This document shows positions 22,258 to 44,204 of a DNA stretch of 64,000 nucleotides, piece after piece (position 1 is the first letter of the stretch; each line of letters starts with the position of its first letter). The position numbers and the translations under genes are program-made. This stretch comes from an uncultured Thermoanaerobaculia bacterium (GTDB taxonomy: Bacteria; Acidobacteriota; Thermoanaerobaculia; Multivoradales; Multivoraceae): positions 1,278,859 to 1,342,858 of the forward strand of contig OX638294.1 in assembly GCA_951812325.1 (NCBI GenBank). Reading direction: 5' to 3'. The notes beneath the pieces were generated by a model. It ran no database searches, was not told where the DNA came from, and saw only the letters and a program-made list of their open reading frames with translations.

Positions 22258-25200
22258 GTGACGCCCCACGCGACGACTTCGTCAACCTACGGCGACGAAC
22301 TCCCGGAACACGACCCGGAGGTCGGTCAACTCGTCCATGTCCGTAGCCGCCGCTGGCTGGTCGAGCACGTCCGGCCCGGCGAGAGGCCCGGCGAATCCTC
22401 GATCGTCCGCCTCGCCTGCGCCGAAGACGACGCCCAGGGCGAGGAGATCGAGGTCTTCTGGAAGGTCGAGATCGACCGGCGCATCCTGAAGCAGGAAGGC
22501 TGGGGCGAACTCGCCGCGAGAGGCTTCGACACGCCGCCCCGGTTCGCCGCCTTCCTCCACACGCTGCGCTGGAACTGCGTCACCGCCACCGACCCCGACC
22601 TGTTCCAGGCGCCCTTCCGTGCCGGCATCAAGCTGGACGCCTACCAGATGGAGCCGCTGCGCAAGGCGCTCCGAATGCCGCGGGTCAACCTCTTCATCGC
22701 CGACGACACCGGCCTGGGGAAGACGATCGAGGCCGGCCTGATCGCCCGCGAACTCCTGCTCCGCAAGAAGGTCCGGACGATCGTCGTCTCCGCGCCGAGT
22801 TCCGTCCTCGAACAGTGGCAGGCCGAGATGGAGGAGCGCTTCGGACTGCTGTTCGAGATCCTCGACCGCGCGTACTTCACCCGCATTCGGCGCGAGCGCG
22901 GCTTCGGCGTCAACCCCTGGAAGACCCACAGCCGCTTCCTGGTCTCCCACAACCTGCTCCGGGATCCGACGTACGCCGATCCGATGCGGGCCTGGCTCGG
23001 CCCGGTGCTCCGCGGCAGCCTGTTTATTCTCGACGAAGCACACCACGCGGCGCCTTCGAGCGGCGGACGATACGGCATCGAGTCGAAGTTCACTCGCGCG
23101 ATTCGGGACCTGAGCCACCGCTTTGAGCACCGCCTCTTCCTCTCCGCGACGCCGCACAACGGCCACTCGAACAGCTTCTCCACCCTCCTGGAGCTGCTCG
23201 ACCCCCATCGATTCACACGCGGCGTCGGCGTACGCAGCGAGTCGCTGGATGCGGTCATGGTGCGCAGGCTCAAGGAGGACATCCGCGAAGTCCAGGGCGG
23301 GTTCCCGCAGCGCAACGTCGTGCCCGTCCGAATCGACAATCTGCCCGCCAATCAGCCGGAGCTCGAACTGTCTCGTCTGCTCGACGAGTATCGGACGGCC
23401 CGCGCTGAGAGATTCAGGAAGGCGACCAGCAGCGTCCAGGCTGCCTCCGGCCTGCTCGTCGTCGGCCTGCAGCAGCGCCTGCTGTCGTCCATCGAGGCGT
23501 TCGCGGTCAGCCTGCGGACCCACCGCCAGACGGTCGCTCGGCAGCGCGACCAGGAACTCCAACAACAGGCCGGCGCCGCCACGACCACCCGCGCCAGGAC
23601 GGAAGCTCAACTCTTCGTCTCGGCATCCGGGGCAACCGGCGCCGACGGCGACCAGGAGGACGAAGCAGCGTGGACCTCGGAGGAAGCCGAACGGGAAGAA
23701 GCGCGCCAGATCGAGACGATCACCGCCGCGACGGAAGCCGCCGCGACCTCGCTCGTTGGCGCCGCAACCGCCGAAGCGCCGGACGAGAGGCTCTGGCTAC
23801 GCGAGAAGGCCCTCCTGGACCGCATGGAGCAGGTCGCCGCGCAAGCCCGTGGCCGGCCCGACGCCAAGACGCGCCGCCTCGTCGACTGGATTCGCGAGAA
23901 CCTCTGCCCCGACCTCCCGCCGCTCGGAACGGCGTTGCCGCCAGGTACGCCGCCACCGCGCTGGAACAACCGGCGGCTGCTGATCTTCACGGAGAACCGC
24001 GTGGGCACGAAGCGCTACCTCCGCAACATGCTGGAGAGCGCCATCGCCTGCTCCGACCGAGCCGAGAATCGCATCGTCACCATCGACGGCCACACCCGCG
24101 GCGCCGCCCGGCGCGAGATCCAGCGCCGGTTCAACGCCGAGCCCGAAAACGACCCGCTGCGCATCCTCCTGGCGACCGACGCCGCCCGCGAGGGACTGAA
24201 CTTCCAGGCCCACTGCACGGACCTGTTCCACTTTGACCTGCCATGGAATCCCGGCCGCATCGAGCAGCGGAACGGTCGCATCGACCGGAAGCTCCAGCCG
24301 GCCAGCGAAGTCAACTGCCACTACTTCGTTCTGCCTCAGCGGGCCGAGGACCGCGTACTGGAGGTCCTCGTCGAGAAGACGGAGACGATCCGAAAGGAAC
24401 TCGGAAGCCTGTCCAGGGTGATCGACGACCGGATCGAACGTCGCCTGAAGAGCGGCGGCATACCCCACGGCACGGTCGACCGACTCGCGGCCCGGATCGC
24501 GGCAGCCGATCTCCAGGTCGAGCGCAAACGCGTCGCCGCCGAGGAACTGGAGAGCGCCCGCCAGCGCCGAAGCGACCTCCAGGGCCAGATCAACCGCTGC
24601 CAGACCCTGCTCCAGAACTCGCGAAAGTGGGTTCAGTTCGACGTCGAGCCGTTCCGGGATGCACTTTCCTGTTCACTCGAGCTGCTGGGCGCAAAGCCGC
24701 TGCAAGCGACGCGGAACGAGAGGCGCGAAACGAGGTGGACCTTCCCCGCCCTCGACGGCCAGACCTCCGCCGACCCCACCTGGGCACGTACGCTCGACTC
24801 CCTGCGCCGGCCGCGGCGGCGCAATCAGAAGCTCACCGACTGGCGCAAGGAGGAGCCGCCCCGCCCCATCGTGTTCGAAGACGCCGGCGTACTGACCGAC
24901 GAGACGGTCCACCTGCATCTCGAACAACGGGTAGCGCAGCGGCTCCTCGCGCGCTTTCGCTCCCAGGGCTTCCTTCACCACGACTTGTCGCGCGCCTGTC
25001 TCGCCCAGGCCGTCGACTCGATCCCCAGAGTCGTCCTTCTCGCCCGGCTGTCTCTCTACGGCAGCGGCGCCGAGCGCCTGCACGAGCAGGTCATCACCGT
25101 GGCCGCCCGCTGGGTCGAGCCGTCGCGCCGCACGGCGCCGCTTAAGGCCTACGCCCGTCACGCGGAACAACGGACGCTCGACCTGCTTGAAGTGTCCCTT

Positions 25201-25635
25201 GCCGGAACGAGTGGACGACCGGTGAACGAGGTGGTAGCGCAGAGGCTCCTGAACGCCGCAGCGCGCGACATCGAGGAACTGCGTCCTCAGCTCGAACCAC
25301 GAAGCCGGGAACTCGCCGCAGTCGCGACGAAGCGGCTCCAGGAGCGCGGCGAGCGAGAGTCTCGTGAACTGCGCGCGATTCTGAAACAGCAGCGCCAGCG
25401 GGTCCGCGACGAACTGCAACTGAGAGACAACCAGTTCGTTCAGCGCACACTCGCCTTCAACCGCGGCGAAGAGCGGCAGTTGCGGGCCGACATGCGTTCC
25501 TGGCGCACGCGACTGGAGCAATTCGACTGCGACTTGGAGCACGAACCCCAACGCATTCGCAACTTCTACGAGGTCCGCGTAGCGCCGCCCGTCGAACCGC
25601 TGGGCATCGTCTACCTATGGCCGGAGACGAACTGA
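22258..25635 (+). CDS. drmD: SNF2-family helicase, DISARM drmD-like (~1125 aa; start tentative GTG 22258)
   Basis: SNF2 N-terminal motifs LDAYQMEPL, ADDTGLGKTIEAG, DEAHHAA, SATPHNG. Helicase C motifs LLATDAAREGLNFQ...FDLPWNPGRIEQRNGRIDR. Long C-terminal coiled-coil extension. Directly upstream of the methyltransferase. Confidence 0.8.
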   Translation: MTPHATTSSTYGDELPEHDPEVGQLVHVRSRRWLVEHVRPGERPGESSIVRLACAEDDAQGEEIEVFWKVEIDRRILKQEGWGELAARGFDTPPRFAAFLHTLRWNCVTATDPDLFQAPFRAGIKLDAYQMEPLRKALRMPRVNLFIADDTGLGKTIEAGLIARELLLRKKVRTIVVSAPSSVLEQWQAEMEERFGLLFEILDRAYFTRIRRERGFGVNPWKTHSRFLVSHNLLRDPTYADPMRAWLGPVLRGSLFILDEAHHAAPSSGGRYGIESKFTRAIRDLSHRFEHRLFLSATPHNGHSNSFSTLLELLDPHRFTRGVGVRSESLDAVMVRRLKEDIREVQGGFPQRNVVPVRIDNLPANQPELELSRLLDEYRTARAERFRKATSSVQAASGLLVVGLQQRLLSSIEAFAVSLRTHRQTVARQRDQELQQQAGAATTTRARTEAQLFVSASGATGADGDQEDEAAWTSEEAEREEARQIETITAATEAAATSLVGAATAEAPDERLWLREKALLDRMEQVAAQARGRPDAKTRRLVDWIRENLCPDLPPLGTALPPGTPPPRWNNRRLLIFTENRVGTKRYLRNMLESAIACSDRAENRIVTIDGHTRGAARREIQRRFNAEPENDPLRILLATDAAREGLNFQAHCTDLFHFDLPWNPGRIEQRNGRIDRKLQPASEVNCHYFVLPQRAEDRVLEVLVEKTETIRKELGSLSRVIDDRIERRLKSGGIPHGTVDRLAARIAAADLQVERKRVAAEELESARQRRSDLQGQINRCQTLLQNSRKWVQFDVEPFRDALSCSLELLGAKPLQATRNERRETRWTFPALDGQTSADPTWARTLDSLRRPRRRNQKLTDWRKEEPPRPIVFEDAGVLTDETVHLHLEQRVAQRLLARFRSQGFLHHDLSRACLAQAVDSIPRVVLLARLSLYGSGAERLHEQVITVAARWVEPSRRTAPLKAYARHAEQRTLDLLEVSLAGTSGRPVNEVVAQRLLNAAARDIEELRPQLEPRSRELAAVATKRLQERGERESRELRAILKQQRQRVRDELQLRDNQFVQRTLAFNRGEERQLRADMRSWRTRLEQFDCDLEHEPQRIRNFYEVRVAPPVEPLGIVYLWPETN

Positions 25636-25693
25636 TGAGCGGCGTGCGACAGGTGGCAGGGTTCGCGTCATCAGCACGGCGCCGCCCGTAGCG

Positions 25694-28600
25694 ATGCCGA
25701 AGCTCGACGCGAACACAAGAGCCCACCTCGAGTGGCTCGGCTTCGTCCGGCCGACCGGCCTCGTGGTGTCGCCGCCGGCGCTCAACAAGGCCGGCGCCGT
25801 GCTGGAACGGGCCGATCGGGAGGGCCAGCGGCTGCTTCGCGACGCGGTATCCGAGCGGGAGTTCAAGCCCGGCGAAGGTCGCCAGCCCTGGCTGCCCGCC
25901 TTCGAGGACTTCGCCCGCTCGGTCCTCGGCTGGCGCTTCTCTCCCGAGGGCTACGCGGGCGGGAGCGCGGCGCCGATTCCCGACGAACTGAGCCTTCACC
26001 TTCCGGACTGCGGCGAGACCCTGAGACCCGACTTCGCGGTCCGCGAACGAAGCCCGAACGAGGATGGCTCGCGCTGGCAACTGCTCGTGCAGACCGTCGA
26101 ACCGGGCCTGAGCTTCGACCGCGCGGTCTCCGGCGCCGGCAAGCTGGAAGCCTCCCCGCACAGCCGCATGGAACGCCTTCTGCGAGCGAAGGCGGTTCCC
26201 GCCGGGCTGCTGTTCAACGGCCGCGCCTTGCGCCTCGTCTCGGCGCCGCGCGGCGAGACTTCCGGCTGGACCGACTTCCAACTCGCCGACATGCTGCTTG
26301 TGGCGGGCCGCCCGATCTGCACCGCCCTGCGCCTGCTCCTGAACGAGCAGCGGCTGCTCGCCTTGCCCAGGCGCCAACGACTGGCCGCGCTCCTGGCGGA
26401 CAGCCGCAAGTACCAGAACGAGGTCAGCGAACGCCTGGCCGAGCAGGTCCTGCATGCCCTCTACGAACTGCTGCGCGGCTTCCAGGCGGCGCACGACGCG
26501 TCGAGAAAGGAACTCCTGGGCGACCAGTTGCGCGAGGATCCGGGCGGCATCTACCACGGCCTTCTCACCGTGGTGCTGCGCCTGGTTTTCCTGCTCTACG
26601 CCGAAGAGCGCGATCTCCTCTCCGAAGAGGCAACCTTCGTCCGCCACTACTCCCTGGCCAGTCTCCACGACCGGCTGCGGGCCGACGCGGCGCTCCACCC
26701 CGACACGATGGACCAGCGCTACGGCGCCTGGGCCCAGTTGCTGGCGCTGTTTCGCATGATCCACAACGGCGCCGCAGCCGCCGACCTCCGCCTTCCGCCC
26801 CGGCACGGCGTGCTCTTCGATTTCGACCGCTTTCCGTTCCTGGAAGGTCGGCCCCCGGGAAGCGTGGCCCAGAACCACGAGCGCGTCGCGGCGCCGCTCG
26901 TGTCCGACGGCACGGTCCATCGCGCTCTGGAGAAGCTCCTCGTGCTCGACGGCGACCGCCTCTCCTACCGCGCGCTGGACGTCGAGCAGATCGGCTCCGT
27001 CTACGAAACGATGATGGGCTTCCGCCTCGAACGCGCCGAGGGACCTTCGTGCGCGATCAAGCCAGCCAAAAGGCACGGCGCGCCCGCCACGGTGAACCTG
27101 GCAGCGCTGCTCGAAAAACCAGTCGATCGGCGCGTCCGCTGGTTTCGCGAACGGACCGACCGCAGGCTGACCGACAAGGCCGCGAAGGCGCTACGGAACG
27201 CCCGGACGATCGACGAACTTCACGCCGGCCTCGACCGCGTGATCGACCGCGCCGCGACCCCCGACCTGGCGCCGAAGGGCCACATGATCCTCCAACCGAG
27301 CGATGAACGCCGACGCTCGGGCTCGCACTACACGCCGCGCGAACTCACCGAACCGATCGTCCGGGACACCCTGGAACCGATCCTCGACCGGCTGCGAGAG
27401 CAAGCCGCGGGAAGCGCGGGCCAGGAACCGGCAACACCGCCAGACCTGTCGGCGCCCGCTGAACACGGATCGCGAGTACGTAGCCCACGTCATCAGGGAC
27501 CGGCAACAGCGCCCGACCTGTCGGCGCGCGGGCCTTCCGGCCCGCATCCAGCTCCGACGACAAAAGCGCCTCGGCCGGAACAGATCCTCGGACTCAAGGT
27601 CTGCGACCCGGCGATGGGCTCCGGCGCCTTCCTCGTCGAATCCTGCCGTCAACTCGGCGACGCCCTGGTCGACTCCTGGCACGCCCACGACGCGGCGCCG
27701 CCCATCCCGCCCGACGAAGACGAAGCCGTCCACGCCCGGCGTCTCGTCGCCCGCAACTGCCTCTACGGCGTGGATCGGAACGCCGTCGCCGTGGACCTGG
27801 CGAAGCTCTCGCTCTGGCTGACGACGCTCGCCAGGGACCATCCCCTGACGTTCCTCGACCACGCGCTTCGCCACGGCGATTCCCTGGTCGGCCTGGCGCC
27901 GGAACAGATCCAGGCCTTCCACTGGAAGGGCAAGGAGAAGCGCTTCCAGGCCGGCATCGAGACGACCTGGATTCGAGAGCAGGTCGAGAAGGCGTTGCGC
28001 CTGAGACGGGCGATCCAGGAGGCGCGCGACGACACGCCGGACTGGGTACTGCGCGATCGGCTGGACCAGGCGGAGGACGAACTGGCTCGGGTCAAGCGGA
28101 ACGGCGACCTCGTCGTTGCGGCCTTCTTCGAACGCCAGAAGCCCGGCGAGCGTGAAGCCCTGCGCCGGTCGTTCGCCGCCGAACTTCAGTTCGAGACTGC
28201 GAGCGGCTCAGGGGGCAAGCCATCGTCCCGGCCGGGCGAAGACGAACAAGCATCCGTTCCGGCTTCCGTCTCGGGTCACTCCGGCAGTTCCGGCAGCATC
28301 CGCGCCTCCCCCTCGAACGCGATCTCGACGATCGGTTGGCTGGAGGAATTCCGAAACGGCGACCCGCCACTGGCGCCGTTTCACTGGGCAATCGAGTACC
28401 CCGAGGTCTTCCTGCTTGAAGAGCGCGAGAATTCCGGCTTCGACGCGGTCGTGGGGAACCCGCCGTTCGCCGGCAAGAACACGATCGGCAACGCGAACGT
28501 ACCGGGCTACAAGGCTTGGCTGAAGCAGCTCCACGAAGAAAGCCACGGCAACGCGGACCTTGTCGCCCACTTCTTCAGGCGCGCGTTCACGCTGGTTCGC

Positions 28601-29977
28601 GAAGGCGGCGCCTTCGGCCTGATCGCCACGAACACGATCGCCCAGGGCGACACGCGCTCGACCGGATTGCGCTTCATCTGCAAGCACGGCGGGGAGATCT
28701 TCCGCGCCCGAAGACGGGTCAAGTGGCCCGGTCTGGCCGCCGTCGTCGTCAGCGTCGTGCATCTGCACCGCGGTCCCTGGCATGGTCCGCGGATGCTCGA
28801 CGGCGTGACGCAACCGAAGATCACGGCCTTCCTGTTTCACCGCGGCGGGCACGAGGATCCTGCGCGGCTCACCGAGAACGCCGGCAAGAGCTTCCAGGGC
28901 AGCATCGTCCTCGGCATGGGTTTCACCTTTGACGACACGGACACGAAGGGCGTGGCGACGCCGCTTGCCGAGATGAACCGCCTGATCGAACAGGACCCGA
29001 AGAACCGGGAGGCGATCTTCCCGTACATCGGCGGTAAAGAGGTCAACGCCAGTCCGATTCACGCTCACCATCGGTACGTCATCAACTTCCACGACTGGCC
29101 GCTGCGCCGCGAGGACCGCGGTGACCGAAGCCAGCGCTGGGCAACCGCTCCGAAGGAGCAACGCAAACAGTGGCTGCGCGAAGGAGGCGTGCCGGTCGAC
29201 TATCCGGATCCGGTTGCGGCGGACTGGCCGGAGCTGCTGGCGATCGTTGAGGAGCGGGTCAAGCCTGAGAGAGCCGAGAAGAACGACGCCGTGGCCAGGA
29301 GGCTATGGTGGCAGTTCCTTCGGCCCCGCCCGGAACTCCAGGGTGCCATCGCCGGCCTCGACCGCGTGTTGGCGATCTCGCGCGTCACCCAGCATGTGGG
29401 TTTCGCCTACCTACCAGCCGGCAAGGTCTATGCCGACCGTCTCATCATCTTCCCCTCCCCCACCCACGCCGCGTTCTGCGCCCTCCAGTCCCGCCCCCAC
29501 GAACTCTGGGCGCGCTTCTTCGGTTCCTCTCTGGAGGACCGACTCACGTACACGCCCTCCGACTGCTTCGAGACCTTCCCCTTCCCAGAGAACTGGGAGA
29601 CTCACTCCGACCTTGAAGTCGCCGGCGCCGCGTACCACGGTTTCCGAGCCGACCTGATGCTCCGGAGCGACGAGGGCCTGACGAAGACGTACTACCGCTT
29701 TCATGACCCCGAGGAGCAGAGTTCGGGCATCACCCGGCTCCGCGAGCTCCACTCGGCCATGGACCGTGCCGTCCTCGCCGCCTACGGCTGGACCGACATC
29801 GGCACGGCCTGCGAGTTCCTCCTCGACTACGAGATCGACGAAGAGACCTGGGGCAAAAGGAAGAAGCCCTACCGCTACCGCTGGCCCGACGAAGTCCGCG
29901 ACGAGGTGCTCGCCCGCCTCCTCGAACTCAACGCCCAACGCGCCGCCGAGGAGAAGCGCAGCGGTTCCCGCCGATGA
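25694..29977 (+). CDS. drmMI: Eco57I/PglX-type N6-adenine DNA methyltransferase, DISARM drmMI-like (1427 aa)
   Basis: HYTPRELTEPIV (motif X), ILGLKVCDPAMGSGAFLVE (motif I), NCLYGVDRNAVAVDLAKLSLWL, VVGNPPFAGK (motif IV NPPF), C-terminal KKPYRYRWPDEVRDEVLARLLELN typical of this family. Confidence 0.85.
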   Translation: MPKLDANTRAHLEWLGFVRPTGLVVSPPALNKAGAVLERADREGQRLLRDAVSEREFKPGEGRQPWLPAFEDFARSVLGWRFSPEGYAGGSAAPIPDELSLHLPDCGETLRPDFAVRERSPNEDGSRWQLLVQTVEPGLSFDRAVSGAGKLEASPHSRMERLLRAKAVPAGLLFNGRALRLVSAPRGETSGWTDFQLADMLLVAGRPICTALRLLLNEQRLLALPRRQRLAALLADSRKYQNEVSERLAEQVLHALYELLRGFQAAHDASRKELLGDQLREDPGGIYHGLLTVVLRLVFLLYAEERDLLSEEATFVRHYSLASLHDRLRADAALHPDTMDQRYGAWAQLLALFRMIHNGAAAADLRLPPRHGVLFDFDRFPFLEGRPPGSVAQNHERVAAPLVSDGTVHRALEKLLVLDGDRLSYRALDVEQIGSVYETMMGFRLERAEGPSCAIKPAKRHGAPATVNLAALLEKPVDRRVRWFRERTDRRLTDKAAKALRNARTIDELHAGLDRVIDRAATPDLAPKGHMILQPSDERRRSGSHYTPRELTEPIVRDTLEPILDRLREQAAGSAGQEPATPPDLSAPAEHGSRVRSPRHQGPATAPDLSARGPSGPHPAPTTKAPRPEQILGLKVCDPAMGSGAFLVESCRQLGDALVDSWHAHDAAPPIPPDEDEAVHARRLVARNCLYGVDRNAVAVDLAKLSLWLTTLARDHPLTFLDHALRHGDSLVGLAPEQIQAFHWKGKEKRFQAGIETTWIREQVEKALRLRRAIQEARDDTPDWVLRDRLDQAEDELARVKRNGDLVVAAFFERQKPGEREALRRSFAAELQFETASGSGGKPSSRPGEDEQASVPASVSGHSGSSGSIRASPSNAISTIGWLEEFRNGDPPLAPFHWAIEYPEVFLLEERENSGFDAVVGNPPFAGKNTIGNANVPGYKAWLKQLHEESHGNADLVAHFFRRAFTLVREGGAFGLIATNTIAQGDTRSTGLRFICKHGGEIFRARRRVKWPGLAAVVVSVVHLHRGPWHGPRMLDGVTQPKITAFLFHRGGHEDPARLTENAGKSFQGSIVLGMGFTFDDTDTKGVATPLAEMNRLIEQDPKNREAIFPYIGGKEVNASPIHAHHRYVINFHDWPLRREDRGDRSQRWATAPKEQRKQWLREGGVPVDYPDPVAADWPELLAIVEERVKPERAEKNDAVARRLWWQFLRPRPELQGAIAGLDRVLAISRVTQHVGFAYLPAGKVYADRLIIFPSPTHAAFCALQSRPHELWARFFGSSLEDRLTYTPSDCFETFPFPENWETHSDLEVAGAAYHGFRADLMLRSDEGLTKTYYRFHDPEEQSSGITRLRELHSAMDRAVLAAYGWTDIGTACEFLLDYEIDEETWGKRKKPYRYRWPDEVRDEVLARLLELNAQRAAEEKRSGSRR

Positions 29978-30121
29978 GAAGCCGGGACCGCCCCAGGTCC
30001 AGGGCCGATCACGTCGCGGGCCCGCTTTGCAGTCACCGCTGCCCGTGTGAGAGAGTTGTCCGCAGCAAGCCGACCGGCCCACCAGCGCCGACTCCTCCCC
30101 CACCTTCCCGCGCACCCCGCC

Positions 30122-31117
30122 ATGACTAGCGGCAAGCTCTTGCGCCAACTCATCGTCTCGGGCGCCGATGGCGACCTCGCTGCATTCCGTGCCGCCGCGG
30201 ACGACGTGATCGCCGACGAGCGGCAGAAGCAACACCACCTCCTGGCGAACGACCTCGAGTCCATTCTCTATGGCCGCACTCTCGCTCCCACGTCGCCTGG
30301 CCTGCGGAGGCTCGCCCAGGCGGTGCCCGAAGATCGAGAGCGTGGTTTGGCCTTGCTGTCACTGCGCGAGCCCGTCCGTGGAATGGAGGACGTTGTTCTC
30401 TCAAGCTCAAACCGCACCATCGTCCGGGCCGTCCTTCACGAGCAGAACCGCGAGGAACTGCTTCAAGCGCACGGGCTCCGGCCCGTCGATCGTCTCCTGT
30501 TGTGCGGACCGCCCGGCTGCGGCAAGACGCTGACCGCAGAGGTCATCGCAAATGAGCTCGGCAGACCTCTCGCCATCGTCCGGGTCGACAGCGTCGTGTC
30601 TTCTTTCCTCGGTGAAACCGCAGCCAATCTACGTCGCGTCTTTGACTTCATCGAAACGACGCCGACAGTAGCAGTCTTCGACGAGTTCGACGCCTTGGGC
30701 AAGGAGCGGGACGACTCCTCGGAACACGGCGAGCTGCGCCGGGTTGTCAACGCGGTGCTGCAGATGCTTGACGCATACGACGGCCGCAGCCTCATCGTCG
30801 CCGCCACCAATCACCAATCCATGCTCGACTCGGCCGTCTGGCGCCGTTTTGAGGAGATCCTCTATCTGAGGCTGCCGACCGCAACGCAGATTCGGGAGCT
30901 CCTCCGCGTCAAGCTGCGCGGCGTACGCCGAGCCTTCGACATCGACACGGTCGCCGTTGAGTCGCTCTTCCCTAATAGTACGCACGCCGACGTCGAGCGC
31001 GTGCTTCGCCGAGCCGTCAAGGAAATGGTCCTGAGCGGTGAAGGTCGCCTTGGCCTGAACCACATCCGCGGGGCCGTGCGCCGAGAGAAGGCGCGGCGTC
31101 AACCTGGGCGCATTTGA
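30122..31117 (+). CDS. ietA: AAA+ ATPase, IetA-like (332 aa from ATG 30122)
   Basis: LLCGPPGCGKT Walker A, VAVFDEFDAL Walker B, AATN sensor 1. Immediately followed by an S8 peptidase gene (IetAS architecture). Confidence 0.75.
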   Translation: MTSGKLLRQLIVSGADGDLAAFRAAADDVIADERQKQHHLLANDLESILYGRTLAPTSPGLRRLAQAVPEDRERGLALLSLREPVRGMEDVVLSSSNRTIVRAVLHEQNREELLQAHGLRPVDRLLLCGPPGCGKTLTAEVIANELGRPLAIVRVDSVVSSFLGETAANLRRVFDFIETTPTVAVFDEFDALGKERDDSSEHGELRRVVNAVLQMLDAYDGRSLIVAATNHQSMLDSAVWRRFEEILYLRLPTATQIRELLRVKLRGVRRAFDIDTVAVESLFPNSTHADVERVLRRAVKEMVLSGEGRLGLNHIRGAVRREKARRQPGRI

Positions 31118-31126
31118 GTCAGGCCA

Positions 31127-34264: not shown

Positions 34265-34482
34265 ATCGGGCCGTGGACTCCCGGTCCACGAGGTCCGGCG
34301 CAACTCCTCACGCTCCGCCGTCGTGCTACCGTCGCTCCGACAGCCATCGTCCCCCGGTCCGCCTGGGCCACACAGTTGCGGATCGACTGCGCTGCCGGCT
34401 CGAACTCGCGAGCCAGTTGGTCCGGGGTTGACTGCCGAGATCTTTTCGAACAATGAAGCCGCTGGAAATTCCAAGAAACTCC

Positions 34483-35577: not shown

Positions 35578-35590
35578 AGCCCTCGGGTCC

Positions 35591-36316: not shown

Positions 36317-36483
36317 GCAGGCTCTCCAGGTGCCGGGCCTAACGCATCGCCAAGCCCAGCCCGTTATACAGGATCATGCATGAAAGCGCAAATCGGGCGT
36401 AAACGGAGCCGCACCATCTTCACCCGTCAACCTCGACCAACTCTGGCCTTTTCGCTTCACTATCCGCCTGCGCTCGGGCCGAA

Positions 36484-36790
36484 TCAGTGCCCGAGCCTTC
36501 TCGACAGGGAGTCCCGCTCGACCGTCAACTCCCCGATCCTCGCGTGCGAGTCCCTGATCCTTTCCTCGTGGTCACGGCGACGCTCCGGCCCCGGCCGAGA
36601 AGGTCTCCTGCATCCCCTCGACCGCCGTCCCCTTCCAACTGCCGACCTGGTCCGGGTGAACGCCGTGCCGCGACGCAATCGCCGAAATCGGCTTCCCCTC
36701 GCGCAGCGCCTCAAGCGCCACCTTCGACTTGAAAGCCGCCGTGAACTTCGGACGCTTCCTCTTCCTCCTGGCTACTCCTCTCGGTTGAGG
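36484..36790 (-). mobile_element. Remnant of an IS3-family transposase orfA (HTH part), frameshifted, no start codon and no orfB
   Basis: Minus-strand translation RPKFTAAFKSKVALEALREGKPISAIASRHGVHPDQVGSWK... then frameshift, then ...ERIRDSHARIGELTVERDSLSRRLGH (IS3 OrfA C-terminal leucine-zipper motif LHAKIGQLTVENDFL). Confidence 0.6.
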
Positions 36791-36910
36791 AGTACACCTT
36801 AGCCACCTGTCCAGTTCTTCGGGACCACCTCATCGTTCAGGTTCGGACGCGAAGAGTGAGGTGGTGAGCGCGGTTGACGCCCGCCGCACCAATGTGTGAC
36901 ATTCGTGCAC

Positions 36911-37150
36911 ATGGAACAGATCGGCATTCGCGAACTCCATCTGAAGACCGGCGAGTGGGTGCGGCGAGCCGCCAGAGGACGGGGCGTCGTCGTCACGGAG
37001 CGTGGCCGCCCGGTGGCTTCGCTTGTACCGTTCCGCGACGACGCACTGGGGGTTTCCTTCGCCGACCGTCAACTGCTGCCCGAGTTCGAGGCCCTGCCGG
37101 AGATCCGCGGCGACTCGGCCGCCGGTATCTCGGAGGACCGGGACCGCTAG
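36911..37150 (+). CDS. Phd/YefM-family type II antitoxin (79 aa)
   Basis: MEQIGIRELHLKTGEWVRRAARGRGVVVTERGRPVASLVPF classic Phd/YefM N-terminus. Stop TAG overlaps the GTG of the downstream PIN fragment (taGTG). Confidence 0.8.
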   Translation: MEQIGIRELHLKTGEWVRRAARGRGVVVTERGRPVASLVPFRDDALGVSFADRQLLPEFEALPEIRGDSAAGISEDRDR

Positions 37151-37268
37151 TGGCGTACTTCGACACCGCCTATCTGGTCAAGTGCTACGTGAAGGAGGAA
37201 GGGTGGGACAGCGTCCGAGCGTTGGCTGCCGAGCGCGGATGGGTTGCCTGCTCGGTGTTTGGGCGCCC
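37150..37268 (+). pseudogene. Truncated VapC (PIN-domain) toxin, N-terminal ~35 aa only
   Basis: VAYFDTAYLVKCYVKEEGWDSVRALAAERG matches the VapC N-terminus including the first catalytic Asp (FDT). Downstream sequence in this frame is low-complexity and ends at 37374 (75 codons, versus ~130 for an intact PIN toxin). Confidence 0.5.
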
Positions 37269-37397
37269 GACGCTCTCAAGGTCGACCTCGTCGGCCCCGG
37301 CGCCGGCCACGAACTCGCTCGCGAGCGGCTGCCCGCAAGCGAAGCGCCCTCGAAGTGGTCTCGCCGCTTCCTGATTCCATCCCGCACGCCGCCGGTT
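37269..37397 (+). pseudogene. Decayed 5' fragment of a second drmA allele (43 codons)
   Basis: Frame +1 of 37002 reads DALKVDLVGPGAGHELARERLPASEAPSKWSRRFLIPSRTPPV, compared with DrmA residues 20-63 EAIELDLIGPWRGHELARERLPIFEAPSNWYLTGFLIPTGTPPE (about 24/43 identical; nucleotide identity ~70%). Confidence 0.55.
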
Positions 37398-37591
37398 ACG
37401 CGGGCTCAACTCCTGCCGCCAACCGTCAGACAGCCATCGTTGCTGCCCCCCAACGACTAGACTCGCCGCATGAGCGGGCGAGACCTCAGGAGCCCCAAGC
37501 CGACTGTGAGGCGCCTGGTTCACCGCACCGCCTCCAGTCAGTCGGTCGTCAGAGCCCGGCGGTCCCGCCAGCGCGGCCCCAGAGAGCCAGC

Positions 37592-38797
37592 GTGACCGCC
37601 GACCGCCGCCTGTTGACTCGCGTTGCGCTCCGCAACTACAAGAGCATCGCCGCATGCGACGTGTCACCAGCGAAGCTGTGCTTCCTCGTGGGTCCGAACG
37701 GCTCCGGCAAGAGCAACTTCCTCGACGCGCTTCGGTTCATCGCCGAGTCTCTTCGGTCTTCGATGGATCAGGCGCTGCTCGCACGCGGAGGCATCAACGA
37801 GGTGCGGCGGCGCTCTGGTGGCCACCCGACGCACTTCACCATCCGTGTCGAGTTCGCCCTCGACGCATCGCGAGGCCACTATGCGTTCACTGTCGGGTCC
37901 AAACGCCAGGCCCGCTACCAGGTCCAGCGCGAAGAGTGTCTCGTCGTACCGACGAACGGGCAGAGCGCTCACTTCTTCAAGGTCGAGAGCGGGCGGGTTA
38001 CCAAGACGACCCTCTCGCCAGCGCCAGCGGCACTGCCCGATCGCCTGTACCTTGTCAATGTCTCCGGTCTTGAGGCGTTTCGGCCCGTCTACGACGCCCT
38101 CTCGAGGACTGGCTTCTACAACCTGAACCCGGCAGCCATACGCGACCTTCAGCCGCCCGACACGGGCGAACTCCTCAAGCGGGACGGGAGCAACATCGCA
38201 AGTGTCCTGGCCAACCTCGCCACCAGTTCGCCTCCGTCGATGCGGAGGATCGAGGAGTACCTCGGGACCGTCGTTCCTGGCATGGCGGGCGTCGGTCGTC
38301 ATCGGCTCGGTCCCAGAGAGACGCTCGAGTTCCGGCAGGAGGTGCGCGGTGCCGAGCATCCCTGGCGCTTCCTCGCCAACAACATGTCCGACGGAACGCT
38401 TCGCGCACTCGGCCTGCTCGTCGCGCTCTTTCAGGGCGCGAGCAACGGCGCCGCAGGGCCCGGACTGGTGGGCATCGAAGAGCCGGAAGTCGCGCTTCAC
38501 CCCGCAGCCGTGGAAGTCCTCATCGATGCGCTGCTTGACGCTGCTGAACACGCCCAGATACTTGTCACGAGCCACAGCACCGAACTGCTCGATCACCCGG
38601 AAATTCGGGACGACTCCATCCTTGCCGTGGTAGCAGAGCACGGCGAGAGCCGCATCGGTCCGCTGGACGAGGTCGGGCGGTCGGCGTTGAAGAAGCACCT
38701 CTTCACCGCCGGCGAACTGCTCAGAATGCACCAACTCGATCCGGATCCAGTGCTCTCGAAACCCGGGCAAATCAGGCTCTTCGGCCCCGAGCCCTGA
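37592..38797 (+). CDS. Solitary AAA_21/ABC-type ATPase (OLD/PtuA/AriA-like), ~401 aa from GTG 37592
   Basis: LTRVALRNYKSI...FLVGPNGSGKSNFLDALRFI Walker A, LVGIEEPEVALHP Walker B, ILVTSHS D-loop/H-loop. No nuclease partner gene adjacent. Confidence 0.75.
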   Translation: MTADRRLLTRVALRNYKSIAACDVSPAKLCFLVGPNGSGKSNFLDALRFIAESLRSSMDQALLARGGINEVRRRSGGHPTHFTIRVEFALDASRGHYAFTVGSKRQARYQVQREECLVVPTNGQSAHFFKVESGRVTKTTLSPAPAALPDRLYLVNVSGLEAFRPVYDALSRTGFYNLNPAAIRDLQPPDTGELLKRDGSNIASVLANLATSSPPSMRRIEEYLGTVVPGMAGVGRHRLGPRETLEFRQEVRGAEHPWRFLANNMSDGTLRALGLLVALFQGASNGAAGPGLVGIEEPEVALHPAAVEVLIDALLDAAEHAQILVTSHSTELLDHPEIRDDSILAVVAEHGESRIGPLDEVGRSALKKHLFTAGELLRMHQLDPDPVLSKPGQIRLFGPEP

Positions 38798-38937
38798 CCG
38801 TGCTCAAGATCGCCTCCATACCAGGCCAGATTCACCGCTGCCTTCGACCTGAGCGCCGCGCGGTCGGCGCCCTCGTTCGACAAGCTGTGGCGTGACGTAA
38901 CCTCCCTGCTCGTTCCGCCGGCAACGATCATCTCCGA

Positions 38938-41900
38938 ATGAGCGAACCGAACAACCACGACGCTGCGGCCGTGACGTCTCTCGATGTCCGCCGGACCCTC
39001 GTCGAAGCGATCGAACTCGACCTCATCGGCCCATGGCGAGGTCACGAGCTTGCGCGGGAGCGGCTGCCGATCTTCGAGGCGCCATCCAACTGGTACCTCA
39101 CCGGCTTCCTGATTCCGACCGGAACGCCGCCGGAACTGAGCCGGGACGACGAGCAGGACGACGGCGGGCCTGACGAGACGCCCGAGCGACCCGGCCTCGC
39201 CGAGGAATCGACGGAGGGCCGGATGGCAGCGAAGAAGCTCTTCTTCCCTTCCTCGATGGGGCTGAGCTTCCTCGCAACCGCGGACAGCCGGCTCGATGTC
39301 TCCGTTCGCTGGGGCGACTACGAACTGGTCGCAACCGCCACCGATGCTGTGGAAGGCGACGGCGGCAACGACAAGGCCGGGGCGCAATACTGGCAGCGGA
39401 GCGCCAGGGAGGAAGCCGTAGAGATCGCCCCGCAGACGGCGGAGCGGCCTGTCCACGACGTGCCCGGCTCGGGCGGGCTGAGGCTTCACGTCGAGCAGAG
39501 GCCCATCTCCGAGATCGCCTCCATCCCCGAAGGCACGCGGGCTGTCAGCGTGTTCCTCGTGAACGAGCGGGAGCCTGCGACTTCGCTCCAGGACACCGAG
39601 CCGACCTACGCGTTCCAGGCCGAAGTCGAGATCCGCAGCGAACAGCCGTTCGTGCCGAGACCGGACCCACGCTCGGCGGAGACCGATGACTGGGATGAAC
39701 AGGTCGCGGCCCTTCACTACCTGGACGCCCCGAGCTACGCCACCGGTCACAACGTCGGCGCCACCTGGGACGTCGACAGCGACGGGAAGTGCCGGAAGAT
39801 CCGCACGACCTGGATGCCCCGGGCGGAGGTCGAGAAGACGGAGACCAGCCAACCGGACGGGGTCGACCTGTCGATGGACCGGCTCGGCCAGCTTGCCGGC
39901 GCCGACGATGCGGACAGGACCCTGCGACCGCTCGTCGCCGCTTACCGCGAGTGGATCAACGAACAGCGCAGGGCGCTCGAGGAAGTTCCCGAAGAGCACG
40001 CGGAGACCGCGGTCGAACTCCTCGATCAGGCTGAGTTCGCCGCCTCGCGGATGGAGCGAGGGATCGCGACGCTTCAAGGCGACGAACAGGCGCTCGACGC
40101 CTTCCGCCTGGCGAATCGCGCCGTGGCCCAGGCTCTTCGGCGCCGAACCCCTGAGGTCTTCGAAGATGCGGCGCCCCGATGGCGGGCATTCCAGCTCGCC
40201 TTCATCCTGCTGAACCTCGCGCCGCTCGCGGACCCCGCCGACCCGCACCGGGAGATGGTCGACCTGCTCTTCTTTCCCACCGGCGGCGGCAAGACGGAGG
40301 CCTACCTGGGTCTCGCCGCCTTCGCGATCGTGCTGAGGCGGCTCCGGAACCCGGAGGCGGGCGGGCGGGCAGGCGCGGGCGTCTCTGTTGTCATGCGCTA
40401 CACGCTGAGGCTGCTGACCCTCGATCAACTCTCGCGCGCCGCGGGCCTGATCTGCGCGCTGGAACTGGAGCGGGCCGACGCGCCCGAGCGCTACGGCGAG
40501 TGGCCGTTCGAGATCGGCCTGTGGGTCGGCAGGGCGGCGACACCGAACCACATGGGGCGAAAGGGCGCCGAACCGCCCGGTTCCGCCCGCCAGAAGGTGC
40601 GGCGCTTCCAGGCGAAACCCTGCTACGAGCCGTCACCCGTCCCCATTGAGGACTGCCCCTGGTGCGGTACGAAGTTCAAGCCCGGCTCCTTCACGCTGCA
40701 ACCGAACGACGACACGCCGACCAACCTGCGCGTGATCTGCGCAAACTGGGAGTGCGAGTTCTCCGGCGACCGCGCGCTCCCCATCGTCGCCGTCGACGAG
40801 CCGTTGTACCGCCGCCTGCCCTGTTTTCTCGTTGCCACGGTGGACAAGTTCGCGGCCCTGCCGTGGGAGGCCCGCGCCGGCGCGCTCCTCGGCGGCGCCG
40901 ACCGACACGATGCGGAGGGCTTCTACGGCGCGGCGGCGCCGAGCCGGGGCCGGCCGCTGCCCTCGCCCCTGCCGCCGCCCGACCTCATCGTCCAGGACGA
41001 ACTCCACCTGATCTCCGGACCCCTGGGATCGATGGCCGGCCTCTACGAGACGGCGGTCGAGGCGCTGGCGCTCCGCGGTTCCGGCAGCCGCGGCGCGAAG
41101 CCGAAGATCGTCGCCTCGACCGCGACCACCCGGCGGGCGCAGGAACAGATCCGGGCCCTCTTCGGCCGTCAGATGACCCGCGTCTTCCCGCCGCCCGGGC
41201 CCTCGCGGCGCGACTCGTTCTTCTCCCAGGTCGTGCCGGCGAGCATGAAGCCGGCTCGGCTATACCTCGGCATCGCGTCGCCGGGCAGGAATGCGAAGGT
41301 CCAGATGCGGCGCGTTCTGCTGCCGCTGATGGCGGCGGCGCAGCAGGCCTTCCGGAACGCGGGCGGCCACGACAACGAGAACAACGCCGCCGACCCGTAC
41401 ATGACGGTGCTTGCCTACTTCAACAGCCTTCGCGAACTCGGCGGTGCGCGGCGCATCGTCGAGGAGGAGGTCCAGAACACGCTGGGCCGCTACGGAGCAA
41501 GGCGCAGACTGAACCAGGAGAGGAGGTACTTCCGCGATCGCGGGCGTCTCTACGAGCCGCTGGAGTTGACCTCCCGGGTCTCGACGGCCCAGGTTGCCGC
41601 TGCGCGACGGCGGCTTGGTCAGCCTTTCCATGCGACGGACCGGGTCGACGTGGCCCTGGCGACGAACATGATCTCCGTCGGCCTCGACATCCAGCGACTC
41701 GGGCTCATGGTCGTCATGGGTCAGCCGAAGACGACCGCCGAGTACATCCAGGCGACCAGCCGGGTCGGCCGCGCAGACGCGAAGCCCGGTCTCGTCATCA
41801 CCCTGCTCAACGCCCACAAGCCGCGCGACCGCTCCCACTACGAACGCTTCCGGCACTACCACGAGACCTTCTACCGCGCGGTCGAGGCTGGAAGCGTCAC

Positions 41901-42360
41901 GCCGTTCGCGGCCCGGGCGTTGGACCGGGGAATGGCCGGAACCCTCGTCGCGCTCGCTCGGCACGCGGAACCGTCTCTGACGCCGGCCACCGCTCCGCCA
42001 GGGCTCGCCGAGGTCCGCGCGCAGCTCGAGGCACTGCTCCTCGATGCGTTCTCCGAGCGGCTCAGCCGCCAGAACATGCCGGAAGCCGAGCGGGAAGAGA
42101 AGCTCGGCTCGGTTCGTCGGCGCGTAGGCGACCTGCTCGACTCCTGGCAGTACGTCGTGGACGACTATCGGGACACCGGCACCGCGGTGAAGTACCAGCA
42201 GTACGAGCGGGAGCAGGGCAAACCACTGCTCCGCGAGATGTTGGACACGGACTTCGAGTCACCCCATCACAAGAAGTTCCGAGTCAACCGCTCGCTTCGT
42301 GACGTGGAGCCCCAAGTGAACCTGTTCATCACGAAGCCGGCCGGCGGCGGAGCGGATTGA
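38938..42360 (+). CDS. drmA: DISARM drmA-like helicase (1140 aa)
   Basis: Helicase motif I LLFFPTGGGKTEAYLG, motif II VQDELHLISGP (DExH), zinc-ribbon DCPWCGTKFKP, helicase C motifs (QATSRVGRADAKPGLVI). 4-nt overlap with the following DUF1998 gene. Confidence 0.8.
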   Translation: MSEPNNHDAAAVTSLDVRRTLVEAIELDLIGPWRGHELARERLPIFEAPSNWYLTGFLIPTGTPPELSRDDEQDDGGPDETPERPGLAEESTEGRMAAKKLFFPSSMGLSFLATADSRLDVSVRWGDYELVATATDAVEGDGGNDKAGAQYWQRSAREEAVEIAPQTAERPVHDVPGSGGLRLHVEQRPISEIASIPEGTRAVSVFLVNEREPATSLQDTEPTYAFQAEVEIRSEQPFVPRPDPRSAETDDWDEQVAALHYLDAPSYATGHNVGATWDVDSDGKCRKIRTTWMPRAEVEKTETSQPDGVDLSMDRLGQLAGADDADRTLRPLVAAYREWINEQRRALEEVPEEHAETAVELLDQAEFAASRMERGIATLQGDEQALDAFRLANRAVAQALRRRTPEVFEDAAPRWRAFQLAFILLNLAPLADPADPHREMVDLLFFPTGGGKTEAYLGLAAFAIVLRRLRNPEAGGRAGAGVSVVMRYTLRLLTLDQLSRAAGLICALELERADAPERYGEWPFEIGLWVGRAATPNHMGRKGAEPPGSARQKVRRFQAKPCYEPSPVPIEDCPWCGTKFKPGSFTLQPNDDTPTNLRVICANWECEFSGDRALPIVAVDEPLYRRLPCFLVATVDKFAALPWEARAGALLGGADRHDAEGFYGAAAPSRGRPLPSPLPPPDLIVQDELHLISGPLGSMAGLYETAVEALALRGSGSRGAKPKIVASTATTRRAQEQIRALFGRQMTRVFPPPGPSRRDSFFSQVVPASMKPARLYLGIASPGRNAKVQMRRVLLPLMAAAQQAFRNAGGHDNENNAADPYMTVLAYFNSLRELGGARRIVEEEVQNTLGRYGARRRLNQERRYFRDRGRLYEPLELTSRVSTAQVAAARRRLGQPFHATDRVDVALATNMISVGLDIQRLGLMVVMGQPKTTAEYIQATSRVGRADAKPGLVITLLNAHKPRDRSHYERFRHYHETFYRAVEAGSVTPFAARALDRGMAGTLVALARHAEPSLTPATAPPGLAEVRAQLEALLLDAFSERLSRQNMPEAEREEKLGSVRRRVGDLLDSWQYVVDDYRDTGTAVKYQQYEREQGKPLLREMLDTDFESPHHKKFRVNRSLRDVEPQVNLFITKPAGGGAD

Positions 42361-44204
42361 TGGCCAAGGCCAAGGGAACAGGTGCGCCTACCGGCAGCAT
42401 TCGCCGCAGTCAGGTCATCACGACCTACGGACCGGGCGCACTGATCGACCTGCCCCACGACTCCGCCATCGTCGGCGGGCTGGATTTCTGGCCATGGCAT
42501 GGTTCTCTCGAGCCCATCGACGAACCCAGGCTGAGCACCAGGCTGCGCAGCCTGACGGGCGGCGCGCTGCCGGCCCTCCACGCCCCGCCCGCCGCTTCGG
42601 ACCGGCCCGGCGACGTCTCGGCCGGCATCGAGGCGCCCCGGTTTCCCGAGTGGTTCGTCGTGCAGCGGGAGGAGTCCTCAACCGACCATGAGGGCGGCCG
42701 CCGTTCGCGCCGCCTGGTTCACCGCAAGTCGCTCGACGAACGACGTAGACACAAGAACCTGGTCCATGGCGGCCAGCCGGTCGTCGCGATCCGCTTCGTG
42801 CGCGGCTGCCCGCGCGGCCATGTCGACGACATCGACTGGTGGAGCTTTGTCCACCGCGGCGTCAGGGACTGCCAGGGCGAACTGGGAATCGAGGAACAGG
42901 GCACCGGCGGAGACCTCTCGAACCTCTTCGTTCGCTGCAGTTGCGGCAACTCGCGGGGTCTGCACGAAGCCAAGGAGATGGACGACCGGCCGCTCGGTCA
43001 CTGCAGCGGCGCCCGACCGTGGCTGGGCCGACACGCCAACGAGGAGTGCGGCGAGCCGGCGCGGCTGCTGATCCGGACCGCGACGAACGCGTGGTTTCCG
43101 CAGATCGTCACGGTGCTGTCGCTGCCGAAGCCGAGCGAGGCGGTCGACGGCATCGTCGCCGAACTGTGGGACGACCTGGAGATCGTCACCGAGCCGGGCG
43201 AACTTCGGTTCCTGAAGAAGAAGCCGAGAATCGCGGCCGCCCTGCACGGCGTCGACGACGCCGACGTGTTGGCGGCAATCGAACGCCGGAAGGCGGGCGA
43301 CCTGGACGACCGACCAGTCAAGTTCGCCGAACTGGACGCCCTGCTGACGGCGCCGGAAGGCTACGACGACGACGTGCCGATCGACGACCGATTCCACGCC
43401 CGGCGCCTGCCGGAGTCAGTATGGAGGGAGGGCGCACGGTCCTTCGCGGACCGGATAGCTGCCGTCGTGCAGGTTCACCGCCTGCGCGAGGTTTCGGCAC
43501 TCACCGGTTTCACCCGCTTCGAGGCGCCGACACCGGACATCCTGGGGGAGGTCGACACGGATGTGGAGCGCGCCGCGCTCGCGCTGGAGCCCGCCTGGTT
43601 CCCGGCCGTGGAGAACCGCGGCGAAGGCGTCTTCGTCCAGTTGGCGACCACAGCCGTTGCGGAGTGGTGCGGCCGCGAGGATGTCCGGACGCGCTGCGCC
43701 ACTCTGGCCGCGGGCCACGAGCGCCGTGAAGCGGAACGACCGCCGGGTGCGAAGCGGCGGCCGTTTCCGGGCGGCCCCTACATTCTCCTGCACACGCTGT
43801 CCCACCTGCTGATCACGTCCCTGGCGCTGCGCTGCGGCTATCCCGCGGCATCGATTCGGGAGCGCGTCTACGTCGACGAAGCCGAGAAGAGGTACGGACT
43901 CCTCCTCTACACCGCGAGCGCCGACGCCGAGGGAACGCTGGGCGGCCTCGTACAGCAGGCCCGGAGCATCAAAGAGCATCTCCGCCACGCTCTCCTCCTC
44001 GGCCAACTCTGTTCGAACGACCCGGTCTGTGCCCACCACCGACCCGACCACAGCGCCGAGAAACGGTGGCTTCACGGCGCCGCCTGCCACGGCTGCACGC
44101 TGATCGCCGAGACCTCCTGCGAGATGCGCAACGACCATCTCGACCGCAGCCTGGTGGCGCGGATCATCGGCGGCGGCGCGGGCTTCTTCGGTCCGATCGA
44201 GTGA
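42357..44204 (+). CDS. drmB: DISARM drmB-like DUF1998 protein (615 aa)
   Basis: C-terminal DUF1998 signature LLHTLSHLLI...ACHGCTLIAETSCEMRNDHLDRSLV (Cys cluster plus N-x2-LDR) and internal Cys-rich zinc-binding region (RGCPRGH...CSCGNSRGLHEAKEMDDRPLGHC). Confidence 0.85.
   Translation: MMAKAKGTGAPTGSIRRSQVITTYGPGALIDLPHDSAIVGGLDFWPWHGSLEPIDEPRLSTRLRSLTGGALPALHAPPAASDRPGDVSAGIEAPRFPEWFVVQREESSTDHEGGRRSRRLVHRKSLDERRRHKNLVHGGQPVVAIRFVRGCPRGHVDDIDWWSFVHRGVRDCQGELGIEEQGTGGDLSNLFVRCSCGNSRGLHEAKEMDDRPLGHCSGARPWLGRHANEECGEPARLLIRTATNAWFPQIVTVLSLPKPSEAVDGIVAELWDDLEIVTEPGELRFLKKKPRIAAALHGVDDADVLAAIERRKAGDLDDRPVKFAELDALLTAPEGYDDDVPIDDRFHARRLPESVWREGARSFADRIAAVVQVHRLREVSALTGFTRFEAPTPDILGEVDTDVERAALALEPAWFPAVENRGEGVFVQLATTAVAEWCGREDVRTRCATLAAGHERREAERPPGAKRRPFPGGPYILLHTLSHLLITSLALRCGYPAASIRERVYVDEAEKRYGLLLYTASADAEGTLGGLVQQARSIKEHLRHALLLGQLCSNDPVCAHHRPDHSAEKRWLHGAACHGCTLIAETSCEMRNDHLDRSLVARIIGGGAGFFGPIE

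Follow-up and report, generated by a model that had tools for sequence, protein, structure and literature searches.

A predicted class 1 DISARM system with other defence genes nested between drmMI and drmA in an uncultured Thermoanaerobaculia bacterium

The stretch of DNA considered here, referred to below as the window, is 64 kb long, belongs to an uncultured Thermoanaerobaculia bacterium (assembly GCA_951812325.1, contig OX638294.1, positions 1,278,859 to 1,342,858 of the forward strand) and carries the genes drmD, drmMI, drmA and drmB of a DISARM-type defence system, with a block of other genes lying between drmMI and drmA. Its G+C content is ~68%, dipping to 62-65% between 30 and 37 kb, and the G+C content at the third codon position (GC3) served as the criterion for telling real genes from spurious open reading frames (ORFs). 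The encoded proteins were compared with the profile libraries PADLOC, Pfam and NCBIfam, the last with its curated cut-offs. The relatives were collected by a scan with DrmA, one genome per species, which gave 79 loci (denoted by L and a number), each oriented and taken with 10-kb flanks; the window proteins were mapped onto all 79 for the gap lengths, and ~60 loci were informative for the drmMI-drmA junction. Among them, L008 is an uncultured Thermoanaerobaculia metagenome-assembled genome (MAG), whose assembly is independent of that of the window. An exact-sequence look-up of DrmB in public assemblies returned no match. The features of the locus, with E-values in brackets unless bits are given, are the following.

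22258-25635, forward strand: drmD, the SNF2-family helicase gene of class 1 DISARM, GTG start
25694-29977, forward strand: drmMI, Eco57I/MmeI-type N6-adenine methyltransferase
30047-31117, forward strand: IetA-like AAA ATPase (PADLOC IetA PDLC02196, 1.5e-92; Pfam AAA, 7.7e-30; Walker A motif)
31127-33490, forward strand: IetS-like S8 subtilase (PADLOC IetS PDLC02198, 1.7e-256, full length; Pfam Peptidase_S8, 6.8e-37)
33776-34264, forward strand: ASCH-domain protein of the PDC-M11B family, ATG start at 33776 (PADLOC PDC-M11B, 7e-29; Pfam ASCH, 4.4e-7)
34483-35640, reverse strand: three-Cys-motif partner protein TcmP of the PDC-M30A/M41A family (TIGR04474, 157 bits vs 53; PADLOC PDC-M30A, 2.8e-18)
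35591-36316, reverse strand: DUF5131 (Gp37/Gp68-like) protein, the TcmP partner, PDC-M41B/M30B (Pfam DUF5131, 5e-94; PADLOC PDC-M41B, 3.8e-100)
36484-36714, reverse strand: degenerate fragment of an IS3-type transposase OrfA (homology to L008:6722-7036, reverse strand)
36896-37150, forward strand: Phd/YefM-type antitoxin (Pfam PhdYeFM_antitox, 2.2e-5, below the gathering score)
37147-37267, forward strand: truncated VapC (PIN) toxin, first ~40 codons (comparison with L008:7350-7796)
37268-37395, forward strand: scar, codons ~23-65 from the 5' end of an earlier drmA allele other than the resident one (tblastn and blastn)
37592-38797, forward strand: HEC-01A ABC-type ATPase, GTG start (PADLOC PDLC04178, 1.4e-159; Pfam AAA_21 and AAA_15)
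38800-38937, forward strand: HEC-01B remnant (DUF4276/TOPRIM-like), with a 458-bp out-of-frame deletion relative to L008
38938-42360, forward strand: drmA, DISARM DExH helicase
42357-44204, forward strand: drmB, DUF1998/MZB protein
44296-44400, forward strand: drmC 5' stub, GTG start and 35 codons, after which the chromosomal flank follows immediately (comparison with L008)

The four core genes matched the DISARM profiles strongly. DrmD was aligned with PADLOC PDLC02621 over profile positions 10-1036 of 1040 (E=1.9e-300) and with Pfam SNF2-rel_dom (PF00176, 1.3e-9) and Helicase_C (5e-13), with the GLGKT and DEAH motifs; DrmMI gave E=0 with PDLC02643 and matched Pfam Eco57I (1.5e-20), MmeI_Mtase (8.6e-17) and MmeI_TRD (4.9e-8), with the NPPF and DPAMGSG motifs in place, PF13659, the model named in the literature, not being among its Pfam hits. 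DrmA scored 1157 bits with NCBIfam NF038325 (DISARM_DrmAS, cut-off 950) and matched PADLOC PDLC02575 (1.5e-275) and Helicase_C (PF00271, 1.3e-7), with the GGGKT and DELH motifs; DrmB, whose gene shares its first 4 nt with the end of drmA, scored 545 bits with NF038324 (DrmB_fam, cut-off 240) and matched PDLC02583 (7.9e-81) and Pfam PF09369 (3.5e-8). All four ORFs are full length, free of internal stops and intact in their motifs. The same four identities had been proposed at these coordinates in an initial annotation made from the letters and ORF translations only, and they were borne out by the searches, including the homology of the proteins at 38938-44204 to DrmA and DrmB, on which that annotation had let its reading depend.

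The distance between drmMI and drmA is 8,960 bp (29978-38937), in agreement with the split of ~9 kb described earlier; the intervening genes are there as well, but in place of the nine counted then, seven intact genes and four gene fragments were found. The contiguous operon of class 1 DISARM is accordingly replaced in the window by two pairs of genes with a gap that includes two antisense genes. Both outer flanks are of housekeeping character (left: ABC ATPase and DcuC transporter; right: GRDB-like protein, MsrB and carboxylesterase), and therefore the island consists of DISARM and its nested cargo only. Empty-site relatives were sought in metagenomes with the DcuC protein of the left flank, and nothing above 70% identity and no common neighbours were found.

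The cargo is predominantly defence-related, as had been supposed, with matches to IetAS, HEC-01A, PDC-M11B and PDC-M30/M41, and its only mobility trace is the degenerate OrfA, the window copy of which lacks the N-terminus and any family match, the corresponding L008:6722-7036 on the reverse strand being an intact 104-aa HTH_Tnp_1 ORF (Pfam 6.8e-9). The IetS-like protein keeps the D-H-S catalytic triad motifs; since the NCBIfam scores are under the equivalog cut-offs (234 bits against 510 with IteA, 142 bits against 900 with IteS), the window IetA and IetS are probably diverged relatives of the known pair. The IetAS genes and the TcmP/DUF5131 pair look intact as far as their coding sequences allow a judgement, and no PDC-M11A partner of the ASCH gene was seen. 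The DUF5131 gene is conserved beside drmA or HEC-01 in L001-L005, L007, L008 and L050. The Phd antitoxin is 98% identical to its L008 copy, in which an intact PIN gene follows (L008:7350-7796, 148 aa, Pfam 3.5e-6); L008 positions 7471-7871 are missing from the window with a clean junction at 37267/37268, so that VapC is cut and the window holds no intact Phd-VapC pair. Likewise, HEC-01A, whose start was set by homology to L008:8197-9402, is present and its partner is destroyed: L008:9405-10004 encodes HEC-01B (PDLC04196, 3.1e-67; Pfam DUF4276, 1.1e-9), of which the window lacks L008 positions 9425-9882 (junction 38819/38820). Insertion mediated by an integrase or a transposon was considered and found unsupported, since the cargo in the window is flanked neither by a tRNA gene nor by terminal or att-like repeats. 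A further, solo DUF5131 gene lies outside the island at 17743-18558 (forward strand, Pfam 5.4e-96) among transporter genes ~4 kb upstream of drmD; its DNA is 77-79% identical to the DUF5131 genes embedded in the DISARM loci of L003 and L008, and no adjacent TcmP was seen.

The window is colinear with L008 from IetA to the start of drmC at 97-98% identity, apart from three segments that it lacks relative to L008: 401 bp that cover the 3' end of vapC and codons 1-22 of the scar, the 458 bp of HEC-01B and a 1.15-kb segment. The first two junctions are clean at base level. With vapC and HEC-01B cut, the cargo is partly decayed. The 1.15-kb segment contains in L008 (5986-6624, forward strand) an ORF for a 212-aa HNH endonuclease (Pfam HNH, 7e-7, with a weak DUF222 tail) and is either an L008 insertion or a window deletion. 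The gene drmC is affected as well: window positions 44225-44400 match L008 15372-15547 at 92.6%, the drmB-drmC spacer is kept, and the stub gives 80% identity with the L008 drmC ORF (tblastn, E=7e-20), while from 44399-44401 on the window matches L003 from 16858 onward, which places the junction at 44400/44401. No intact gene of the PLD type (HxKx4D, PF13091) was found within the 64-kb window, whereas in L008 and L003 a true DrmC directly follows drmB (PDLC02587, ~1e-69 and ~1e-71; PLDc_2), and among the relatives tblastn found drmC full length in 52, truncated in 2 and in 10 not at all, so that ~80% keep it. Judged from these alignments, drmC is a gene lost by recent deletion and not one simply absent; the lack of an intact drmC nearby had been correctly noted before, but its complete absence does not hold, the 35-codon 5' stub having been overlooked. 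The losses relative to L008 affect cargo or drmC, and no core DISARM gene is touched.

The degenerate second drmA 5' end, reported earlier at 37269-37397, was recovered with significant scores: DrmA residues 23-65 were aligned by tblastn with 37269-37394 at 63% identity (E=6e-10), and blastn gave 76% over 118 nt (E=3e-15). In L008 the scar is longer, covering DrmA residues 1-65 (E=1.6e-19), and lies directly 3' of the intact Phd-VapC pair. At the DNA level it is closest to alleles of the Ca. Multivorans type, with 86-89% identity to the 5' end of drmA in L006, L004 and L003 (86% to L003); with the intact copies of drmA in the window and L008 the identity is 75-77%. Being nearer to the alleles of the sister clade than to the resident drmA, the scar is therefore a relic of a different allele, and a tandem duplication of the resident drmA was rejected; the recombination suggested for this fragment in the initial annotation is in keeping with this difference. 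The intact drmA-drmB of the window is 74% identical to that of L003, and the right chromosomal flank, common to the window and L003, is 83-91% identical, near the 86% of the scar. Scars of DISARM genes were found in the gaps of none of the other loci except the window and L008, and thus they represent one event rather than a general signature. The simplest reading is that the right half was replaced by a block of HEC-01AB, drmA and drmB whose donor was a less closely related DISARM lineage. Homology would have anchored the block at one end, and codon 65 of the former drmA would be the site of an illegitimate join at the other. Alternatively, an imported cargo block may have brought along a piece of the drmA of its donor.

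The synteny comparison proposed in the initial annotation shows how common the split is. The spacing from drmD to drmMI is 2-83 bp in the 79 loci, except for ~500 bp in four of them, and that from drmA to drmB is -7 to 62 bp in all but six, while drmMI and drmA are separated by at most 400 bp in 17 loci, by 1.6-10 kb in ~36 and by more than 10 kb in ~7. The junction is thus split in ~43 of the ~60 informative relatives, and split loci are known from Acidobacteriota, Latescibacterota, Gemmatimonadota, Spirochaetia, Binatia and Gammaproteobacteria. In 52 loci, the gaps contain 318 ORFs in 204 protein clusters, most of them confined to one locus and many with matches to PADLOC families; the most recurrent are HEC-01A (14 loci), HEC-01B (12), DUF5131 (11), TcmP (5) and IetS (4), and sampled cargo elsewhere matches the HEC-06, PDC-S28, PDC-M38AB and GajA-like models. 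A batch PADLOC scan of 115 cargo representatives gave mostly cross-hits among ABC-type ATPase models and serves as a coarse summary only. Locus pairs with DrmA at least 98% identical have mostly 21-40% of their cargo clusters in common, and at 80-90% DrmA identity the mean cargo overlap is 0.045. The drmMI-drmA junction behaves as a site of fast cargo turnover, where unrelated defence cassettes are gained and lost and the core genes are kept. Even between near-identical DISARM alleles the cargo varies.

The inheritance of the two halves was compared by pairwise distances in the 17 loci that carry complete copies of drmD, drmMI, drmA and drmB. The correlation is as tight for DrmD-DrmA (r=0.94) as for DrmA-DrmB (r=0.95), and therefore the halves are inherited as one system; DrmMI distances correlate less (~0.7), which may be expected from the variable target-recognition domain of a methylase. 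General module swapping, one of the three alternatives offered in the initial annotation, was rejected on this correlation, and the best fit among them is a hotspot nested inside a defence system, in view of the variable cargo of the relatives. The ratios of non-synonymous to synonymous substitution rates (dN/dS) between the window and L008, all from small counts, are 0.29 for DrmA, 0.50 for DrmB, 0.12 for HEC-01A, 0.25 for DUF5131, 0.28 for ASCH, 0.45 for TcmP and 0.71 for IetS, the last with 23 non-synonymous and 11 synonymous differences, so that the constraint on IetS appears weaker than on its neighbours.

Taken together, the positions 22258-44400 are read, with a probability of about three in four, as one class 1 DISARM system (drmD-drmMI and drmA-drmB) with a predicted defence function, in which other defence genes, now partly decayed, are nested at the drmMI-drmA junction. 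By analogy with described systems, DrmMI would methylate adenines of the host, and the DrmA-DrmB helicase complex would load on unmethylated invading DNA with 5' single-stranded ends, with DrmD assisting and DrmC being dispensable. In this lineage, at least part of the cargo was probably brought in when different DISARM loci recombined: a block of HEC-01A/B, drmA and drmB, probably with drmC, would have been fused illegitimately to codon 65 of the previous drmA, with the scar left behind. The window copy would later have been trimmed by clean deletions, which took the 3' part of vapC and the greater portion of both HEC-01B and drmC. Several points weigh against this interpretation. The scar event may be read in either direction, as the replacement of the resident drmA or as the import of a piece of donor drmA with the cargo; the 17 loci of the congruence sample are biased to short gaps, the flanks being limited to 10 kb; the dN/dS of DrmB and IetS indicates weak constraint, on small counts; and the several deletions relative to L008 are those of an island losing sequence. 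Furthermore, the right flanks of the window and L008 differ, and a scan for sigma-70 promoters and intrinsic terminators stood at shuffle expectation, drmA-drmB lying behind 9 kb of cargo with two genes antisense.

The same losses of 401 bp, 458 bp, most of drmC and the 1.15-kb HNH segment, as well as the ratios for DrmB and IetS and the two antisense cargo genes, which may interrupt read-through, might also be expected of a decaying relic, the DISARM halves of which no longer cooperate and whose region is being lost. This is unlikely, though it deserves some weight, since the four core ORFs remain full length and without internal stops, with their motifs intact and DrmA at a dN/dS of 0.29, the deletions are confined to cargo or to the dispensable drmC, and most of the cargo-bearing relatives retain intact core genes.

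The embedded genes, especially HEC-01AB, could serve DISARM as accessories, in the manner of a PrrC-like backup triggered upon DISARM inhibition, instead of being hitchhikers independent of it. HEC-01A/B-type pairs are the commonest cargo (~17 of ~60 loci), the HEC-01B end lies at most 55 bp from the drmA start or overlaps it in eight loci, a HEC-01AB-like pair is situated between drmA and drmB in L045, with a weak HEC-01A-like match at the same place in L065, and HEC-01 alone gave no defence in E. coli (10.1101/2024.01.29.577857). However, most loci are without HEC-01 and 17 without any cargo, the window has lost HEC-01B with DISARM still intact, and the tight linkage comes largely from one related acidobacterial clade and may reflect shared ancestry, which makes an accessory role improbable. 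A related but broader proposal, speculative and distinctly unlikely as it stands, is that the drmMI-drmA junction might go beyond a passive sink and be a preferred docking site, with cassettes swapped between DISARM loci via the flanking DISARM genes as homology anchors, and that HEC-01AB may be a backup module dependent on DISARM or Hma; such a dependence would explain why HEC-01 showed no defence when tested alone.

Two autonomous systems in one island, a drmD-drmMI pair of SNF2 helicase and methylase and a DrmAB helicase module, would be in line with the Serratia class 1 DISARM, which without drmABC still protects against some phages and so has partly separable activities (10.1101/2021.12.28.474362), and with the seven relatives that have no drmMI within 10 kb upstream of drmA; it is nevertheless highly improbable, since the divergence of DrmD and DrmA co-varies as that of DrmA and DrmB does, and the arrangement drmD-drmMI, cargo, drmA-drmB is found again in many phyla. 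It is barely credible that the split, the scar or the lack of drmC arose in metagenome assembly by a chimeric join or the collapse of a repeat, for although the relatives are MAGs, the window probably too, and its right flank is unlike that of the 98% relative L008, the independent L008 assembly has the identical gene order and scar, the breakpoints are clean and non-homologous rather than joins within shared sequence, and the right flank of the window is also found in L003, which carries DISARM there.

The "genetic embedding" of genes within defence systems, of which the window is a case, has been surveyed by Payne et al. 2024 (bioRxiv 10.1101/2024.01.29.577857), who found that DISARM, BREX and type I restriction-modification (RM) systems frequently hold embedded genes, as do 62.7% of Hma systems, and used these genes to define the HEC and PDC candidate families; co-orientation with the host system was seen for 96.7% of the embedded genes, a "genomic sink" was proposed without a mechanism, and the survey was limited to at most three embedded genes between system genes. 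HEC-01 was described in the same work as an ABC ATPase with a TOPRIM-like partner, without defence in the assays. The window resembles these cases by its defence genes nested in a multi-gene system, by HEC-01A, PDC-M11B and PDC-M30/M41 as cargo, families defined in that survey like the HEC-06, PDC-S28 and PDC-M38 of the relatives, and by the few mobility genes. It differs from them in that seven intact genes and four fragments are embedded, against the limit of three, with two of the genes antisense, and, where the survey proposed a sink without a mechanism, its drmA scar is a sign of DISARM loci having recombined with each other. The location of an unrelated defence gene inside an RM-like operon is likewise exemplified by PrrC in the EcoprrI type I RM system and by BrxU in BREX, as discussed in the same survey; there, a functional link between host and cargo is established, whereas in the window and its relatives the cargo varies by locus.

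In comparison with class 1 DISARM as described for Serratia sp. SCBI (drmD-drmMI-drmA-drmB-drmC; Ofir et al. 2018, as presented in 10.1101/2021.12.28.474362 and PMC9142583), the window encodes the first four of these proteins with neither gene order nor orientation altered, drmD and drmMI being closely spaced and drmA and drmB overlapping; it differs by the drmC reduced to a 35-codon stub, the lack of drmMII and the seven intact foreign genes, two of them antisense, in the 8.96-kb split. DrmC was dispensable in the class 1 Serratia system (10.1101/2021.12.28.474362), and its loss is tolerated and frequent in DISARM operons (10.1101/2021.12.28.474362; PMC9142583). Thus, the split operon and the loss of drmC are documented properties of DISARM, and the locus is a well-documented but ordinary example. 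It goes modestly beyond the literature in three respects: the cargo is concentrated at one junction in this DISARM clade; its turnover is faster than the divergence of the DISARM genes, the split halves still being co-inherited; and the allelic drmA scar is a footprint of how cargo or a DISARM half can move between loci. The knowledge of the working mechanism of DISARM is unchanged by this analysis. In practice, a locus of this kind may be missed or called in fragments, since standard defence-finding tools tolerate only so many foreign genes within a system.

Among the cargo genes, IetAS is reportedly a defence pair of an ATPase and an S8 protease, said to have been described by Gao and colleagues in 2020. 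The window pair is similar to it by the adjacency of the genes, the strong PADLOC matches and the intact Walker A motif and catalytic triad, but differs by the scores below the NCBIfam cut-offs and by the dN/dS of its IetS.

Some loci of the relatives depart from the common architecture. Inserts of 1.2-2 kb are located between drmA and drmB in L028 (13379-15378), L032, L036, L037, L045 (13445-15218) and L065, and consist of PDC-M38A/B in L028 and of a HEC-01A/B-like pair in L045. The DrmA match of L077 (10001-15078) spans ~5 kb and the DrmMI match of L056 (4324-9828) 5.5 kb, which suggests insertions within the genes, and in L034 (8392-9828) the drmMI upstream of drmA is present as its last third only. 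A contiguous drmD-drmMI-drmA-drmB locus with 55-67% identity to the window proteins was found in L012 (CAYGYP010000009.1), labelled Candidatus Bathyarchaeia archaeon, and represents either an inter-domain transfer or a binning error. The HEC-01A of the gammaproteobacterial L079 (8055-9947) is 69% identical to that of the window, and its DrmA 61%, which hints that the HEC-01 cassette may move between DISARM loci independently of the host system.

The chromosomal surroundings vary as well. The flank of L008 (L008:16254-23423) is common to L001, L002, L005, L006, L007, L050 and L069, while that of the window (44401 onward) is shared with L003 only, and all four combinations of DISARM allele type and flank type occur, which suggests either transfer of the island between chromosomal sites or rearrangement beside it. 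Directly to the right of the island, at 44427-44930 on the forward strand, there is an ORF of 167 aa with good GC3 that had no match in Pfam, PADLOC or NCBIfam and has an 89% conserved counterpart at this position in L003.

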